A DNA stretch of 6,270 nucleotides from a virus (lineage: Duplodnaviria; Heunggongvirae; Uroviricota; Caudoviricetes), in IMG/VR virus record IMGVR_UViG_2778261462_000002, positions 1-6,270 of that record. One strand, given 5' to 3'. The notes beneath the pieces were generated by a model. The model had not been told where the DNA came from, searched no databases, and saw nothing but the letters and a program-made list of their open reading frames with translations. The translations under genes were made by a program, and so were the position numbers. This document shows positions 1 through 6,270 of this stretch, one piece after another. Numbering within the stretch: position 1 is the first letter of the stretch; every line of letters begins with the position of its first letter.

Positions 1-251
1 GCTTTGTTGTAGGTGGACCAGTTGGTGATTCTGAACTTTTGCTTTGCCACGGAATGGTCTGTGTTGTCGGGAGGATACGTGATCTGATCCTTCAACTCAG
101 CAAAAGTTCGATTTATTCAACAAAGCCGCAGGCAGTAGAAGAATTTTATGATGCGTTTTCTCTGGAAAGCATGGAGCCAGGTAGCACCATCCGCATTGCT
201 ACAAAGGGCGACCTGGTAATCATGATGTATCGGAAAGAGGAAGCCAAATGA
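1..251 (+). CDS. Hypothetical protein, 5'-partial. The frame is open from the window start, so the real start may lie upstream; the first in-window start candidate is TTG at 39.
   Basis: Frame 3 has no stop from position 3 to the TGA at 249-251. Its stop overlaps the ATG of the next gene (ATGA), suggesting translational coupling. No recognisable motif. Confidence 0.35.
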   Translation, partial: FVVGGPVGDSELLLCHGMVCVVGRIRDLILQLSKSSIYSTKPQAVEEFYDAFSLESMEPGSTIRIATKGDLVIMMYRKEEAK

Positions 252-439
252 ATAAAGCCTCCCCAGTAGAGTTAAGAGTGAGCATCGAAATGGCGCATAG
301 CCTCGCTCAAATTGGAGTCAGGTTTGTACCAATTCCAGTAGAAACAGATGAAGAATTTCAAAGGTTAGCGGCATCGGCAGCACAAAAGCTGGAAATCATG
401 GCGGAGAAAGCAGAGAAAGCGGAAGGAGACGGACAGTGA
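248..439 (+). CDS. Small conserved prophage protein, 63 aa, which I recall as DUF1382-like from lambdoid prophage early regions.
   Basis: ATG at 248 preceded by GAGGAAG; 4-nt ATGA overlap with the upstream ORF; its TGA overlaps the GTG of the downstream gene (GTGA). The N-terminal sequence MNKASPVELRVSIEMAHSLAQIG resembles small lambdoid proteins from memory. Confidence 0.5.
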   Translation: MNKASPVELRVSIEMAHSLAQIGVRFVPIPVETDEEFQRLAASAAQKLEIMAEKAEKAEGDGQ

Positions 440-1299
440 GTGAAACTAACTATCAGGAGTTGCGTGAAGCGGCAGAGAAAGCAACGTGGGGAGACTGGGA
501 CTCATATAAACCACACCGTGGCGCACGTGGTTATGAGGTCCGACTAAGTAGTCAGGCCATTGCGCAACACGTTCTGAAAAACAACGCTGAATTTATTGCT
601 GCCTTTAATCCAAAGGTTGCTTTGGCACTACTGGATGAACGGGAAAGGAACCAGCAATACATCAAATCCCGCGACCAGGAGAACGAGGAAATTGCGCTAA
701 CGGTAGGGAAGCTGCGCGTTGAGCTGGAAGCAGCAAAAAAGCGCATAGCAGAACTGAAAGCCGAACCTGTAAGCCAAACTTACAAGTTGCCTCCCCTGTC
801 ATCCAACGAAGTAAACGACGCGGCATGGAAATTACACAACATGCTGACTGAACACGGCCCGCTAAATGGGCGTCAGTTCAACAATCTGAAAGGTTGCTTC
901 TATGAGGCATTAAAGGTCGCAATGCGCAACTATCCGGTTACTCCGGATAGTTCGGCGCAAGCACCAGGGAAGGGGGGCTTCCCCGGAGAGCGGATCCGAA
1001 TTAAGCCGCATGTTTACCGTGAACTGGTTAACCGCCTCCACGATACAGCGATCAAGTGTGCTGGCACCCAGCAATTACGGGAAAGAATTAGCCGCGTTTT
1101 GGGCGAAGTTATTACACCAGATCGTCATAAACAAGCCGAGAAAAGCGGCCTGGAAAGGAGTCATCTTGAGGCGGCATTAAACATTAAACCGGGGCATACG
1201 CTAGGTGTCATTGATGCCATGTTGGTCCATGAAATGGCAAGGGCTTTATTGCCGCTGGTGGCTGAAAAGCATGAGGCGGACCATGCCAACGAAAGCTGA
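436..1299 (+). CDS. ead/Ea22-like family protein, 287 aa.
   Basis: GTG start with AAGGAG about 9 nt upstream. N-terminal ELREAAEKATWGDW, then NPKVALALLDERE and a coiled-coil KRIAELKAEP, which is the typical N-terminal signature I recall for Ea22-like proteins; the C-terminal half is variable and unassigned. Confidence 0.65.
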   Translation: MSETNYQELREAAEKATWGDWDSYKPHRGARGYEVRLSSQAIAQHVLKNNAEFIAAFNPKVALALLDERERNQQYIKSRDQENEEIALTVGKLRVELEAAKKRIAELKAEPVSQTYKLPPLSSNEVNDAAWKLHNMLTEHGPLNGRQFNNLKGCFYEALKVAMRNYPVTPDSSAQAPGKGGFPGERIRIKPHVYRELVNRLHDTAIKCAGTQQLRERISRVLGEVITPDRHKQAEKSGLERSHLEAALNIKPGHTLGVIDAMLVHEMARALLPLVAEKHEADHANES

Positions 1300-1469
1300 G
1301 TTACAGGCGCGCATAGAGATTCTTGAAAAAGAGAATGCGAGTCTAACTCCTGGAGGTTTCTTGTGTCAGATCGAAATATAGCAGCTAAAAGCCAGGAAGA
1401 GCGAGACAAGGTGAACGTAGCGGCGTTGCTTACAAACCCCGCTTTCACAAACTATGCCTTTTCAATGTA

Positions 1470-1489
1470 TACTGTATGAATAAACAGTA
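1470..1489. promoter_or_regulatory. LexA (SOS) box TACTGTATGAATAAACAGTA upstream of humD.
   Basis: Perfect CTGT-N8-ACAG core with AT-rich spacer and TA flanks (consensus TACTGTATATATATACAGTA). It overlaps a TATACT -10-like hexamer at 1468-1473 and sits 19 bp upstream of the humD ATG. Confidence 0.75.
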
Positions 1490-1507
1490 TCATTGAGGTA
1501 AAACGCT

Positions 1508-1897
1508 ATGGGCTTCCCTTCTCCTGCGGCGGATTATGTTGAAAGCCGAATTTCTCTTGATCAGCAACTAATCAGGCATCCATCAGCAACCTACTTCATG
1601 CGGGCGGCAGACAGCCATCACCGTGAGGGAATATTGCAGGGTGCTTTGCTGGTGGTTGATTCCTCGCTTACTCCGGTTGATGGTTCGCTGCTTGTCTGCG
1701 CTATGGAGGGTGAATATCGCATAAAGAGATACCGAAAGTATCCGCGCCAGCACCTGGAGGATTTAAGCACCGGGAAGAAAGAGGCGTTACCAGTAGATGA
1801 CGATGGTTACACGGGGAGTAATGCTGTTTTTGGTGTGATCACTCATGTCATCAATGATGTCCGAAGTGGGGAATTTGATGATTGTCCAGTGATTTAA
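1508..1897 (+). CDS. humD: HumD-like UmuD' analogue (S24 peptidase, LexA-like C-terminal domain) lacking the cleavable N-terminal arm.
   Basis: GAGG 9 nt upstream of the ATG, and an in-frame TAA at 1499-1501 prevents any N-terminal extension. The protein starts MGFPSPAADYVE, matching UmuD from Gly25 onward (UmuD ...QCGFPSPAADYVE...). A Ser (AADSHH) and a Lys (RIKRYRK) are retained at dyad-equivalent positions; VFGVITHV matches UmuD VFGVVIHV. Confidence 0.85.
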   Translation: MGFPSPAADYVESRISLDQQLIRHPSATYFMRAADSHHREGILQGALLVVDSSLTPVDGSLLVCAMEGEYRIKRYRKYPRQHLEDLSTGKKEALPVDDDGYTGSNAVFGVITHVINDVRSGEFDDCPVI

Positions 1898-1940
1898 GCT
1901 GCAAAGTGCTGGTGCTTTATGCCTGTGAAGTTTACAATTG

Positions 1941-1960
1941 TGTGCACATAACGAGTACAC
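1941..1960. promoter_or_regulatory. Candidate Phd/Doc operator: perfect palindrome TGTGCACA (1941-1948) plus GTACAC half-site (1955-1960), just upstream of phd.
   Basis: Palindromic elements lie between a TTTACA -35-like hexamer (1931-1936) and the phd SD GAGG (1961-1964). Phd-family antitoxins autoregulate through palindromic operators. Confidence 0.4.
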
Positions 1961-1969
1961 GAGGTGTTT

Positions 1970-2191
1970 ATGCAATCCATTAACTTCCGTACCGCGCGTG
2001 GCAACCTTTCTGAAGTGCTCAACAATGTTGAGGCCGGGGAAGAGGTTGAAATCACCCGCAGAGGCCGTGAGCCAGCAGTAATTGTCAGCAAGGCTACTTT
2101 CGAAGCCTACAAAAAAGCGGCGCTGGATGCTGAATTTGCATCCCTGTTTGACACCCTGGACTCCACCAACAAGGAACTGGTTAACCGATAA
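1970..2191 (+). CDS. phd: Phd antitoxin (Phd/YefM family), 73 aa.
   Basis: ATG at 1970 with GAGG 5 nt upstream; the ORF-track GTG at 1964 is probably not the real start. [73 protein letters not shown] matches P1 Phd as I recall it. Its TAA overlaps the doc ATG (TAATG). Confidence 0.9.
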
Positions 2192-2571
2192 TGAGGCATA
2201 TATCACCGGAAGAACTGATAGCGCTTCATGATGCGAATATAAGCCGCTACGGCGGCCTGCCGGGAATGTCAGATCCGGGCAGGGCAGAGGCCATTATCGG
2301 GAGAGTCCAGGCCAGAGTTGTGTACGAAGAGATCACCGACCTTTTCGAAGTCTCCGCCACCTACCTGGTGGCTACGGCGAGAGGGCATATATTCAATGAT
2401 GCCAATAAGCGTACCGCGCTAAACAGTGCGCTGCTATTTCTACGCCGTAACGGTATACAGGTATATGATTCTCCCGTGCTGGTGGAACTTGCGGTGGGGG
2501 CCGCAACTGGTGAAATCCCCGTATCTTCAGTAGCGGAAAAACTACGTGAATTATTTGGTCCCAATATTTGA
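2191..2571 (+). CDS. doc: Doc toxin (Fic-fold kinase, death-on-curing), 126 aa.
   Basis: Fic/Doc motif HIFNDANKR (HxFx[DN][AG]NKR) is present; the N-terminus [22 protein letters not shown] matches P1 Doc from memory; translationally coupled to phd. Confidence 0.92.
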
Positions 2572-2574
2572 AAA

Positions 2575-2600
2575 GAAGCCCGCTCAACCAGGCGGGCTTC
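2575..2600. terminator. Hairpin terminator between convergent operons: 9-bp perfect stem GAAGCCCGC / GCGGGCTTC with 8-nt loop.
   Basis: On the minus strand the stem is followed directly by UUUUCAAAUAUU, a good intrinsic terminator for the dre operon. On the plus strand the U-tract is about 15 nt away, so it is weaker for doc. Confidence 0.6.
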
Positions 2601-2654
2601 CTACTATCACTCAATGATTTTTTCTGCTGTCAGCCAGCTAATTCGGTGATGTTT

Positions 2655-3455
2655 TTAGGCGTCAGCATCAGCATCTGCTTCCACATCAGCCACGGCTTCA
2701 TCGGACGGTTCTTCTTTGGCCTGCTCTGCAATCGCCGCACGGCATTTGGCCCTTGCTGTGGCGATTGCTTCAGCACGCACATCATCAGGAATCGTTGACG
2801 TGATATACATATCCAGTTCTTCGGCGCGGAACACTGTTTGGTCCAGATATTCGCGTAGCATCCAGGTAAATTCGAAATCACACGCGATAATCTCTGCGCT
2901 ACCTTCCGCACCATTAGGGAAGTGGATAAACGCTTGTTTGGCTAAACCAATAACACGACATGCAGTAGCATATACAGCAAGCAATAAATTTTCGTTTTCG
3001 CATGAAACGGGCTGGTTTACGCCAGTAATAATGCCATTAATGGCCCGGTCGAACGGCTTGTAGTTCGATATGCGCTCTACACGCCATATCCCCAAAAGAG
3101 AGCCATTACGGAATATGACAGGAGTAACAGCTAATTGAAGCTCACCGATCAGCCGCTGCGCAAATGAATAATTATCAAACAAGCCAATCGGCGGGCAATG
3201 ATATGTCTGCGCCAGTTTGATCAGTTCGTCCTGTGAATACTCTTTATCACGAACAGTGAAGAACATACGTTTGCCTGTCTCACCATTACGCCAGATAGCA
3301 ATCCCTTCCTCTAACAGAAGTTCTTCGTCAAAGCCAAAATAGGCCATAACAGTGCGTTCAATAGTGACTAATGGCAGTGACATATCTGGTTCGATTTCAA
3401 CAACCAGACCGTTACGCAGGCGGTATAAAATACGTTTTGCGTTTTCCGTGCTCAT
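2655..3455 (-). CDS. Hypothetical protein X, 266 aa, with a poly-acidic C-terminal tail (EEPSDEAVADVEADADADA).
   Basis: Start chosen at the ATG at 3455 (MSTENAKRILYRL), 13 nt after the dut stop with AAAGGA upstream. The longer 332-aa ORF-track version would overlap dut by about 200 nt and is rejected. No motif I can assign. Confidence 0.55.
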   Translation of the reverse strand: MSTENAKRILYRLRNGLVVEIEPDMSLPLVTIERTVMAYFGFDEELLLEEGIAIWRNGETGKRMFFTVRDKEYSQDELIKLAQTYHCPPIGLFDNYSFAQRLIGELQLAVTPVIFRNGSLLGIWRVERISNYKPFDRAINGIITGVNQPVSCENENLLLAVYATACRVIGLAKQAFIHFPNGAEGSAEIIACDFEFTWMLREYLDQTVFRAEELDMYITSTIPDDVRAEAIATARAKCRAAIAEQAKEEPSDEAVADVEADADADA

Positions 3456-3468
3456 ATCCTTTCTCTGC

Positions 3469-3963
3469 TTATAACTTTTCGTACTTAAGCTGTGAACGCT
3501 TAATTTCAAAGCGACCTTCCGATGTGCTACCAAAGCCACCAGCACCTCGTTCTGTTTCATCGAGTTCATCAACTTCGACCAGCGAGACTTGTTCCACACG
3601 CTCAAAAATGCCTTGCATGACAGCCATTCCAGGCTTGAGGCAAACGCCTTCACCGCCGGGATCAGTAATCAATTTTGCCATGATTTCACCGCGATAATCG
3701 GAGTCGATAATTCCTACGCAGTTAGCCAGGCGCGTATGTTTTTTGCAGCCCAATCCGGATCGCGGATAGAGTTTCAGACACCAGCCGGGCGGGATCTCCA
3801 TAGCCAGTCCGGTATACACCCACCAGCTTGAGGAAATTGCACCATTGCTATCGACGCATGGTGTTATTTCAACAGCCTCAAAATCCATTGCTGCCGATCC
3901 TGCGGTGGCATAGAACGGCAGTTTTGCACCAGGATGCAGGCGCTTCACTTTTACGTTAATCAT
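3469..3963 (-). CDS. dut: dUTP diphosphatase (trimeric dUTPase), 164 aa.
   Basis: Start at the ATG at 3963 (MINVKVKRLHPGAKLPFYATAGS). dUTPase motifs present: PRSGLG, GIIDSDYRGE, RGAGGFGSTS. The N-terminus aligns with E. coli Dut (..KEFPLPTYATSGSAGLDL..). The start overlaps the upstream gene's stop by 8 nt (ATGATTAA). Confidence 0.85.
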   Translation of the reverse strand: MINVKVKRLHPGAKLPFYATAGSAAMDFEAVEITPCVDSNGAISSSWWVYTGLAMEIPPGWCLKLYPRSGLGCKKHTRLANCVGIIDSDYRGEIMAKLITDPGGEGVCLKPGMAVMQGIFERVEQVSLVEVDELDETERGAGGFGSTSEGRFEIKRSQLKYEKL

Positions 3964-4447
3964 GCTTCTTTGCTCTTTTGGTGAAGGTGTAAATTCGACG
4001 TTTAATATGCGGGGCAGTCGGTACGGATACGTTTGTGGATTCGATAATGCCTTGCTCTTCAAGAGAGCGAACGGCACGCAGGAACTGAGACGCATCGCCG
4101 CCACCGGACAGCCAGAATTTACGGGCGTAAATGCTGCCGTTACGGATAATTTCAGCAACGACACGAGACTGGGTTTGTGTTTCACGATAGGCAAACAGTT
4201 GCCGGGCTTCTTCCGGCGTAATAGCCAGTTGATAGCCTTTCCCCTTATGGGCGCGAATAAAACCAAACGACACCAGGTGTTTTAGTTCCCTGCGCGTAGT
4301 CTCATAACCGTATTCCTGTATCTGGAGATTGAGATCGGCGGGCTTTAGCCATGCTTCCGGCGACTCAGTAAGAAGCGCCAGCAACTTACCGGATAGCTCA
4401 GGGGAGGAAGACGGGTAACAGTTAAGAGATGGGTAATAGTGTTTCAT
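3956..4447 (-). CDS. Hypothetical protein Y, 163 aa, possible tandem winged-helix DNA-binding protein.
   Basis: ATG at 4447 with AAGGGGG SD 6-7 nt upstream; 4-nt ATGA overlap with Z's stop. Segments ETTRRELKHLVSFGFIRAHKGKGYQLA and SQFLRAVRSLEEQGIIES look like wHTH recognition regions; this is a composition-level call only. Confidence 0.55.
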   Translation of the reverse strand: MKHYYPSLNCYPSSSPELSGKLLALLTESPEAWLKPADLNLQIQEYGYETTRRELKHLVSFGFIRAHKGKGYQLAITPEEARQLFAYRETQTQSRVVAEIIRNGSIYARKFWLSGGGDASQFLRAVRSLEEQGIIESTNVSVPTAPHIKRRIYTFTKRAKKHD

Positions 4448-4788
4448 TTGCGCCCCCTTACTGGATAATGAGAGCGGGCATCAACCGGAGCAATGAATCC
4501 GGTTGTAGGGCGGGAAAATACGAGATCAATCTTCTCGGTCATGGCGCGATAGTTTTCCTGATAGTGGGCCAGGAGTTTTTCAGCAGCAATGACGGTTACT
4601 CGCCGGACGTAGCTTTCAGCTTCGCCCAGGTTTGACCATTTCTTTTCGAGGGTAAGTACAGGTACGGTCTCAAGCCCTGTCATGATTCCGAACACCACGA
4701 CAGCCTCGCCGCGCTTAACGCCAGCAGCAAAGGTTACGGTGTAACCGTCAACCGTGAAACGCCTTGATTCCGTGATACGACTCTGCAA
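4444..4788 (-). CDS. Hypothetical protein Z, 114 aa, with a putative TTG start.
   Basis: The first start codon after the in-frame stop at 4816-4818 is TTG at 4788, with GGGGG 4 nt upstream. The first internal ATG is codon 36, so the start is uncertain. No recognisable motif. Confidence 0.45.
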   Translation of the reverse strand: MQSRITESRRFTVDGYTVTFAAGVKRGEAVVVFGIMTGLETVPVLTLEKKWSNLGEAESYVRRVTVIAAEKLLAHYQENYRAMTEKIDLVFSRPTTGFIAPVDARSHYPVRGRK

Positions 4789-4860
4789 AGTACCCCCAGA
4801 AAAAACAGGCGTACTTTACAGTAAAATGCAGTGTTAAAAAAGGGTGTTAGAAATTTAATC

Positions 4861-5889
4861 TCATGAATCCATGAGGCGGCTATTGGCACCTGCTGTCACA
4901 CCGCCACGACGAAGATAACGCATCAGTGTTTCGGGCTTCTTCCATGTACCTTCCTGCATAATTTCAACCAAAGACACCTGTTTTTCAGCCATATCTATGG
5001 CGGCACCAACACGCGCACTGTGGCCTGTCCACGTCCGGTAACGGCCTTTATTGGGGGTGGCATCACTCTTACCCAGCAGCGCCCAGGCGTCACTGAAAAT
5101 CTTCTCCATCGCGGGCGCGGTTAATGGCGTGGTGGTGATCCGCGCTTTGTTGCTCCGGTGTACTGGCGGGAAAAGTATCGCATCCGGGTGATCACGTAGT
5201 CCGGACGCGTCCAGCCAGTCATTGAGAACCGCAGTTGTCCGGCGGGAGAGCACCTTATCAAGTCCGGCGGCGGTCGTGATGGTTTTGGTGTGGGATACGT
5301 GAAGCGTTACAGTGTCACCAGTCTGTTCCAGATCGCGAACACGCACGCGGGACATTTCAGCCATACGCAACAGGGTATTGTAGGCCAGGAACAGAAAAGC
5401 CCGGTTGCGCAGATCCACCAGCCTGTCAGAGCGGGAGAGCAGCACGTCGAGCAGTTTCAGGTCATCCCAGCGCAGGGGCACTGCCTGGCCTGTGCGTTCG
5501 CCTTTTTCGGTTGCAGCTTCGCGCCGGATGCGCCGCATCGCCAGGGATACGCTTTTGTCATCAGAGAGTTGCGGCAGTCCGCATTGTGACAACAGCATAT
5601 TGAGCATGGCGTAATGCTTTTCAATGGTGGTTGAAGCCAGATCCGCATCATGCAGTTGAAGCAGGTATTCGCGGGCAGCTTCCGGGGAGATCGGAAACCA
5701 CGCAAGACCACGAGCGTGGCACCATCGCGCCCAGGAGTGAAAGACCAGGCGCAGATCGCGCAGTGTATTAGGTGAGTAAGCGCCCTGGTCATTAAGGAAC
5801 TGCATGAAATTTTTGGCGGCTTCCTGGTACTCAGCACCAATATCACGAAGAAACATGCCAGAATTACCGGAGATAATAAGTTTACTCAT
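4861..5889 (-). CDS. dre: Cre-family tyrosine site-specific recombinase, Dre-like, 342 aa, with the catalytic set intact.
   Basis: ATG at 5889 with AGGTGA SD. Aligns along its length with P1 Cre as I recall it: SVSLAMRRIRRE vs AVSLVMRRIRKE; DLRNRAFLFLAYNTLLRMAE vs DIRNLAFLGIAYNTLLRIAE; HTKT vs RTKT; WTGHSARVGAAIDMA vs WSGHSARVGAARDMA; and the C-terminal W...MRYLR carrying the Tyr nucleophile. A rox-like site lies 152 bp upstream. Confidence 0.88.
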   Translation of the reverse strand: MSKLIISGNSGMFLRDIGAEYQEAAKNFMQFLNDQGAYSPNTLRDLRLVFHSWARWCHARGLAWFPISPEAAREYLLQLHDADLASTTIEKHYAMLNMLLSQCGLPQLSDDKSVSLAMRRIRREAATEKGERTGQAVPLRWDDLKLLDVLLSRSDRLVDLRNRAFLFLAYNTLLRMAEMSRVRVRDLEQTGDTVTLHVSHTKTITTAAGLDKVLSRRTTAVLNDWLDASGLRDHPDAILFPPVHRSNKARITTTPLTAPAMEKIFSDAWALLGKSDATPNKGRYRTWTGHSARVGAAIDMAEKQVSLVEIMQEGTWKKPETLMRYLRRGGVTAGANSRLMDS

Positions 5890-6041
5890 GTAATCATTTC
5901 ACCTCTATAAATTGGTGTCGCTACGCGAAAAAACAAAAAATGACAGGCTAGTTATCCGTGAGAATTTAAAATTTAAGCCCTTGATTCGAACCATGACTTT
6001 TTGAGCCTGTCAATACTGATCGTTTGATCATTATTATATAC

Positions 6042-6073
6042 TAACTTTAAATAATGCCAATTATCTAAAGTTA
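6042..6073. other. rox-like recombination target: TAACTTTAAATAAT-GCCA-ATTATCTAAAGTTA (14-bp inverted arms, 4-bp asymmetric spacer).
   Basis: Arms match as inverted repeats at 13 of 14 positions (A vs G at arm position 9). The sequence differs from rox as I remember it (TAACTTTAAATAATGCCAATTATTTAAAGTTA) only at 6065, C for T. Flanking C6041/G6074 extend the palindrome. It sits upstream of the Cre-family gene, as loxP does for cre. Confidence 0.7.
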
Positions 6074-6143
6074 GAAGGGGAAAAATTTTTTTTTGATACA
6101 ACGGATCAAGTGAACAAAAAAGAAACCGTTTGATAAGCGGGAT

Positions 6144-6157
6144 GGCACTGTTGCAAA
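6144..6157 (+). repeat. IS26 left terminal inverted repeat, GGCACTGTTGCAAA.
   Basis: Exact 14-bp IS26/IS6-family terminal IR as I recall it, located 63 bp before the transposase ATG. Confidence 0.85.
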
Positions 6158-6206
6158 TAGTCGGTGGTGATAAACTTATCATCCCCTTTTGCTGATGGAG
6201 CTGCAC

Positions 6207-6270
6207 ATGAACCCATTCAAAGGCCGGCATTTTCAGCGTGACATCATTCTGTGGGCCGTACGCTGGTACT
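6207..6270 (+). CDS. tnpA: IS26 transposase Tnp26 (DDE transposase, IS6 family), N-terminal 21 codons only (3'-partial).
   Basis: Translation MNPFKGRHFQRDIILWAVRWY is the IS26 Tnp N-terminus as I recall it. Confidence 0.9.
   Translation, partial: MNPFKGRHFQRDIILWAVRWY

Follow-up and report, generated by a model that had tools for sequence, protein, structure and literature searches.

An IS26 left end 70 bp from a rox site: a probable rearrangement breakpoint on a D6-like phage-plasmid relic

A D6-like segment between two insertion-sequence ends

The window, the whole stretch of 6,270 bases that was analysed, consists of 127 nt of an IS903-group end, 6,016 bp of unique DNA and 127 nt of IS26. 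The unique segment (128..6143) comes from a D6-like phage-plasmid and carries, in order, a truncated DUF4752 gene (DUF4752′), a DUF1382 gene, an Ead/Ea22 gene, humD, phd-doc, hypothetical genes, dut, two small ORFs, dre, rox and a 70-bp spacer. The humD gene, for a UmuD-like S24 peptidase, lies at 1508..1897 on the plus strand and was assigned by PF00717 and by the annotation of relatives. The phd-doc addiction module (1970..2571, plus strand) comprises phd (1970..2191) and doc (2191..2571); doc matches PF02661, and the module was placed by the annotation of the plasmid L001 at an offset of 9001. The dUTPase gene dut (3469..3963, minus strand) was mapped by alignment from the annotation of L001 (12470..12964).

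The unique segment has 84.5% identity to phage D6. Identity reaches 99.6–99.8% over window positions ~125..6143 with L010, a phage-plasmid contig of ~77 kb, and 99.67% over 1899..6143 with L001. The window is a mosaic when set against its relatives: it pairs a left junction of the pK91 type (see below) with an interior of the L010 type. Positions 300..1028, which hold the Ead/Ea22 gene, are missing from the pK91-type relics, and mosaicism extends across 300..1507. All phage-plasmid contigs lose similarity to the window at 2644..2708, which lies between doc and the gene that follows. These sequence comparisons suggest that recombination between relics and phage-plasmids lies behind the mosaic.

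The left end of the window (1..127, minus strand) is a terminus of an IS903-group element of the IS5 family, whose inverted repeat (reverse complement GGCTTTGTTGAATAAATCG) ends at position 127. The 127 nt match more than 5000 plasmid records annotated as 'IS5 family / IS903B transposase' with 91–97% identity; the assignment, made from the terminal inverted repeat and the similarity to annotated copies, holds for the group and not for the isoform. A DDE_Tnp_1 (IS5-family) transposase gene adjoins the same left junction in L019 and L020. BLAST matches starting at 125–130 had first suggested that 1..124 was a piece of phage mosaic, and this was ruled out by the end of the IS903 inverted repeat at 127.

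The DUF4752′ ORF (54..251, plus strand) takes its 5′ part from the IS903-like end and is a fusion made by the IS insertion. Judged by the records that share it, the fusion is a marker of the relic lineage. The IS903–DUF4752′ junction was found in only 10 PLSDB records. Some belong to the S. Typhi pK91 family, whose plasmids are conjugative, of type IncFIB and carry qnrS1; the others are three E. coli plasmids, two of which (56 and 90 kb) are typed IncY. These E. coli carriers are rich in IS and have non-phage cargo such as a polysaccharide locus. The exact 65-aa fusion product is encoded in 158 blocks of public assemblies, and all nine of the fusion-protein matches listed are on Rep3/SopAB- or IncY-type plasmid backbones or on short contigs, not on phage-plasmids. 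Phage-plasmids, among them those of E. fergusonii and the ~80-kb ones of Shigella dysenteriae, are uninterrupted at this point.

At the right end, an IS26 left end occupies 6144..6270 on the plus strand. The exact 14-bp IS26 IRL GGCACTGTTGCAAA was found at 6144..6157, the ATG of tnp26 stands at 6207, and the element is cut by the end of the window at 127 nt. All of these positions (127/127) are identical to IS26 in L001, L002, L005 and L012, in which the copies are annotated as 'IS6-like element IS26 family transposase' (WP_001067855.1); the identity of the element rests on the 127 of 820 bp visible in the window. Translation of 6207..6269 gives 21 codons, MNPFKGRHFQRDIILWAVRWY, the N-terminus of Tnp26. 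The gene reads away from rox, and the left (IRL) end faces rox. The preliminary description was correct in placing an IS26 left end beside rox. Its interval of 6042–6270 does contain the IS26 end, but 6042 is the start of rox and IS26 begins only at 6144. The spacing that it gave as about 70 bp is exactly 70 bp, and these retained base pairs of the rox–c1 spacer run from 6074 to 6143. Their last 8 bp, AGCGGGAT (6136..6143), adjoin IS26 and would be the target-site duplication (TSD) under a simple insertion.

Two candidate features across this junction were rejected. A consensus scan for an outward hybrid promoter, directed from IRL toward rox and dre, was empty, and the best −10 element found manually matched at 3/6 positions. 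An 85-aa ORF (5973..6230, minus strand) that spans rox and the IS26 junction is a product of the juxtaposition and is unsupported as a gene.

The multicopy insertion sequences at the two window ends are each exactly 127 nt long (1..127 and 6144..6270). A de Bruijn assembler with k=127 leaves 127 nt where a unique contig joins a collapsed repeat. Given the equal stubs, the 6,270-base window is probably an entire k=127 short-read contig with both ends in collapsed repeats. This would account for the stop inside IS26, and short reads cannot extend a contig that seemingly ends at a collapsed repeat. The coincidence of the two lengths suggests a contig end without proving it, and this weighs against the explanation preferred below.

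The rox site and its recombinase

The rox site (TAACTTTAAATAATGCCAATTATCTAAAGTTA, 6042..6073, without strand) is built of a 14-bp arm, a GCCA spacer and a second 14-bp arm. It agrees with D6 rox at 31 of 32 positions, and the sole difference, T→C at 6065 in an arm, is also present in other members of the window's lineage. No such match occurred in 200 shuffled sequences (0/200), and the claim of a rox-like site is thereby upheld. A rox site is defined as 32 bp of 14-4-14 architecture with inverted 14-bp arms and an asymmetric 4-bp spacer (PMC4777119). For the D6 Dre/rox system, the source is Sauer & McDermott 2004, as cited in PMC4777119, with GenBank entries AY753669 and MF356679.

The adjacent dre gene (4861..5889, minus strand) encodes a full-length Cre-like tyrosine recombinase of 342 aa with the Pfam domains PF00589 and PF02899. 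The protein is 90% identical to D6 Dre, with 342/342 residues aligned and no gaps, and its start codon is 152 bp away from rox. The identical Dre protein is encoded in 303 blocks of public assemblies. Both the architecture of the site and the full-length orthologue of the recombinase next to it are those of the Dre/rox system. Among the contigs that encode either the exact Dre or the exact DUF4752′ fusion, none has the right junction of the window, and none joins the arrangement containing Ead/Ea22 to the IS903 junction.

A putative sigma-70-like promoter, a consensus match only (TTGGCA, 16 nt, TATAAT; 11/12), was found at 6033..6060 on the minus strand and points at dre. It overlaps rox in such a way that the GCCA spacer provides the −35 hexamer. 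The natural spacers ACTA and CCCC would weaken this hexamer, so dre expression might vary with the rox spacer.

Variation in rox was seen at window positions 6056..6059 and 6065 and in the rox sites of L001–L027. At least seven central 4-mers (ACTA, TCCA, CCCC, GCCA, CCCA, ACCA and TACA) stand beside identical or near-identical Dre. Arm variants comprise the T→C at 6065, an A→G in L006, L007, L014 and L015, and a T→C that accompanies TCCA, while the rox of L025 has a 2-bp insertion. Among the fetched relatives of 97–99% identity, dre differs by 0–5 SNPs, except for 12 in L005. In laboratory screens, changes of the central 4 bp affected rox compatibility far less than changes at flanking positions (PMC4777119). 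From their sequences, the natural rox variants may be heterospecific sites.

The Cre/lox system of P1 has an established role in plasmid maintenance through the resolution of multimers. By analogy, the Dre/rox of the window would probably still be capable of resolving multimers. As dre, the promoter-like site and the 32-bp rox are all untouched, the relic could still serve as a site-specific multimer-resolution cassette, and together with phd-doc this would make it a stability cassette.

The uninterrupted locus and the fate of c1

In phage D6 the order of genes is dut, orf3, orf2, dre, rox, c1, pacB, pacA and lpa (MF356679, AY753669). The c1 gene, of 345 aa, starts 211 bp from rox on the side opposite to dre and reads away from rox; its start is also ~211 bp from rox in L006–L015. 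Many contigs of ~78 kb with the exact Dre have the full D6-like layout with c1 (PF27008), pacB, pacA, lpa and tciA/B. In uninterrupted relatives, GATAAGCGGGAT continues into TTAGCAGCGTAAATCC, and c1 starts ~140 bp later. Since the spacer continues to c1 in these relatives, the IS26 end of the window falls between rox and c1, within their intergenic spacer and on the immunity side. The preliminary description had proposed, by reference to P1, that the insertion lay on the far side of the site, toward the immunity region, and had called for a comparison with uninterrupted relatives. The D6 geometry agrees with this proposal, and the comparison leaves IS26 ~140 bp short of c1. Of the features of a functional P1/D6-like phage-plasmid, the one open to comparison here is c1 next to rox, followed by pacB, pacA and lpa; the window lacks it, with IS26 at rox+70 and no c1 sequence. 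In L010, where the rox–c1 spacer is intact, scanning it for promoters gave nothing convincing for c1.

The window thus resembles the D6 Dre/rox locus in the order of dut, two small ORFs, dre, rox and the c1 side, in the same 14-4-14 site with GCCA and in a Dre of 342 aa. It differs from D6 in that the dre DNA is only ~79% identical, the rox arm carries the change at 6065, the rox–c1 spacer cannot be aligned and IS26 stands in place of c1.

A second comparison is with the pK91 plasmids (NZ_CP029912 and relatives) and the IncY relics NZ_CP010131 and NZ_CP091840. These share the left junction of the window with 100% identity over 1..299, the gene order through dre-rox and the orientation of IS26 on the c1 side. 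However, in pK91 the IS26 comes only after c1 and 275 codons of pacB, 300..1028 is missing, identity over 1508..6143 is only 97.4% and the rox spacer is ACTA against GCCA in the window. The pK91 copy of IS26 (L002 15839..16620) departs from the IS26 sequence after ~782 bp, and the IRR is missing where it should stand; the right end of this copy is thus also truncated or rearranged.

Retention of c1 in databases was assessed with a query from the intact L010 that covered the 5′ end of dre, rox, c1 and the 3′ end of pacB. It was found that c1 is retained in 18 of the 83 PLSDB records that carry the rox lineage of the window, and in 8/62 of such records among the E. coli complete genomes. Most truncated copies have a common cut 154 bp beyond rox, at an IS1 end, and further matches end ~117 and ~170 bp beyond rox, each beside an annotated IS1. 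Dozens of complete plasmids, 50–220 kb in size, carry the IS1-cut relic (L001 from 15228, L012, L018 and L019), as do a few chromosomes; its hosts are Escherichia, Salmonella, Klebsiella, Enterobacter, Citrobacter and Shigella. A single ancestral truncation at this point appears to have spread widely with dre and rox intact.

Boundaries formed by IS26 are also present on the c1 side. In pFUJ80155-1 the element stands at rox+234, which is 34 nt inside c1; in pPRO_A-1370-6W-A_2 it stands at about rox+520, and in pK91 it lies within pacB. The IRL faces rox in all four IS26 boundaries on this side, the window counted, and the breakpoint of the window at rox+70 is the nearest to rox among the breakpoints seen.

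Origin and meaning of the junction

Boundaries of IS26 in enterobacterial resistance plasmids have been explained by replicative transposition, adjacent deletion or inversion, and cointegration (He et al. 2015, PMC4471558; Varani et al. 2021, PMC7986276). The present boundary resembles them in its 127 identical nt, the 14-bp IRL, the start of Tnp26 and an end that abuts a truncated foreign module, and also in the neighbouring copies of its relatives, which are without TSD and have single-sided shared flanks ('tracers'). It is unlike them only in position, as IS26 at rox+70, in the rox–c1 spacer, was not in any collection searched (PLSDB, the E. coli complete genomes, one genome per species, viral contigs and metagenomes).

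With a probability of roughly 0.7, we regard the junction as an IS26 rearrangement breakpoint on a D6-like relic that keeps dre-rox and phd-doc intact. In this explanation a 6.0-kb relic, from DUF4752′ to rox, would be bounded by an IS903-group element on the left and by IS26 on the right, and the right junction would have been formed by replicative transposition catalysed by Tnp26. The likeliest routes would be an intramolecular adjacent deletion or inversion, or a cointegrate with an IS26 already nearby, while a clean neutral insertion would be less likely. The genes c1-pacB-pacA would then no longer be contiguous with rox in this molecule. The host replicon is probably no functional phage, and c1 probably does not lie immediately past IS26.

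In relatives, five complete IS26 copies adjoin the module, and an 8-bp TSD was found on none of them. L001 and L005 have an identical junction of the IS26 IRR with phsA (AGCTGCTCTATATTC...), and their IRL sides are on different D6-derived points and orientations. The shared IRR flank with differing IRL flanks indicates, for these two sequences, a history of IS26-mediated inversion or deletion. He et al. 2015 observed no TSD on ~70 IS26 copies of clinical plasmids, and described deletion in cis and inversion in trans, with single-sided 'tracers' that reveal replicative intra- and intermolecular transposition (PMC4471558). As most carriers are without c1, none of the five neighbouring copies has a TSD and the observations of He et al. 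point in the same direction, the comparative evidence makes it likelier that c1 was lost or separated than that IS26 inserted simply and neutrally. In L001 (6354..10899) and L005 (10460..15005), which are otherwise different plasmids, an IS26-associated phsABC operon for thiosulfate reductase adjoins the relic.

A strict single series of nested deletions from a pK91-like ancestor was considered and rejected. The IRR-side flanks of the four IS26 copies of this orientation differ among the relatives (pRiA4b-ORF3/ISKpn19, phsA and a Tn3 fragment), and hence they do not belong to one simple nested-deletion series. Such an ancestor is also disfavoured by the 2.6% divergence of pK91 from the window and by its missing 729-bp block.

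The strongest argument against a relic is the interior of the window. L010 is closer to it (99.6–99.8%) than pK91 is (97.4%), and the Ead/Ea22 block is present in the window and absent from pK91. The host could therefore still be a phage-plasmid, intact for the most part, into which two IS have inserted. The L010-like interior could have come from recombination of a relic with an incoming phage-plasmid or, equally, from a phage-plasmid with two such insertions.

The IS26 end might also be one arm of an IS26-bounded resistance region (a pseudo-compound transposon or translocatable unit) beside rox, for which we would give somewhat less than an even chance. In pK91, IS26 on the c1 side is followed by ISKpn19 and qnrS1; in pFUJ80155-1 the dre-rox fragment lies between two IS26 copies, beside mef(B)-sul3-aadA1-cmlA1; in pPRO_A-1370 a Tn3 fragment comes after IS26. 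Members of the IS6 family, and IS26 especially, are the commonest IS beside resistance genes in P1-like phage-plasmids (PMC9600943). Against this, the window holds only 127 nt of IS26 and nothing further, and the IS26 of L001 and L005 adjoins phsABC, not resistance genes. With resistance regions and phsABC past IS26 in relatives, the idea of cargo is plausible; it is compatible with the relic breakpoint and adds only the claim of cargo to it.

A simple neutral insertion of IS26 into an intact, inducible D6-like phage-plasmid is unlikely. The layout would be a complete 820-bp IS26, then AGCGGGAT-TTAGCAGCG...c1, with an 8-bp duplication of AGCGGGAT, c1 and its proximal promoter intact, and no cargo. 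The window itself is compatible with a simple insertion with TSD that leaves c1 intact 820 bp away, and to this extent it speaks against the relic breakpoint. The unique DNA is nearly identical (99.6–99.8%) to the complete-looking L010, and P1-like phage-plasmids tolerate IS26. Moreover, the insertion point is upstream of a conserved TTGACA-containing stretch of the c1 leader, so c1 need not be inactivated. Nevertheless, the left IS903 junction is common only to relic plasmids. A pattern search of genomes and metagenomes for the reciprocal junction (IS26 IRR, 0–10 nt, c1 leader) found none, and in PLSDB no match to the rox–c1 query has its start at the junction point. The lack of a TSD on all five neighbouring IS26 copies, and the rarity of TSD-flanked IS26 in clinical plasmids, also stand against it.

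A chimeric rox–IS26 junction made by the assembly and absent from the cell is hardly credible: the window does end in a multicopy repeat and its junction is unique across the collections searched, but a de Bruijn contig ordinarily stops k nt inside a genuine neighbouring repeat, the junction falls on the exact first base of the IRL, as for a real transposition end, and analogous junctions are present at other positions in complete long-read plasmids.

The preliminary description had implied that IS26 was inserted into a P1-like phage-plasmid. The evidence does not support this, as the other end of the segment is IS903 and the left junction is found on relic or degenerate plasmids only. P1-like phage-plasmids with IS26-associated resistance genes, such as RCS47 and SJ46 (Pfeifer et al. 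2022, PMC9600943), share IS26 and the P1-family backbone with the window. They are, however, complete and often inducible, with cargo at a few hot spots, whereas of the present replicon only a 6-kb fragment is seen, without visible cargo and with a left junction that ties it to relic carriers of non-phage type.

The finding is real but ordinary. All its components come from known families, and IS26 beside resistance genes in P1-family phage-plasmids is documented (PMC9600943). Few features are as common in enterobacterial plasmids as an IS26 end beside a truncated phage or plasmid module, and the finding itself is minor. Two cautions follow from it. The presence of dre/rox and P1 genes on a contig does not make it a phage-plasmid, as this rox lineage is represented in the databases mostly by relics that ordinary plasmids carry; and the end of the window is probably a limit of the assembly, not biology.

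A wider proposal is put forward tentatively, and we consider it rather doubtful. Resistance plasmids would have selectively kept dre-rox and phd-doc as a 'stability cassette', IS26 and IS1 would have trimmed off the immunity and packaging side again and again, as far as rox, and the substitutions in the rox spacer would reflect selection against Dre-mediated fusion of co-resident carriers. If this were true, rox+70 would be the tightest trim so far, and the spacer variants, at least seven beside a nearly invariant dre, would be mutually incompatible rox sites. A relic distributed across six genera, with natural spacer variation, may be of interest to those who study plasmid stability and to users of Dre/rox as a tool.
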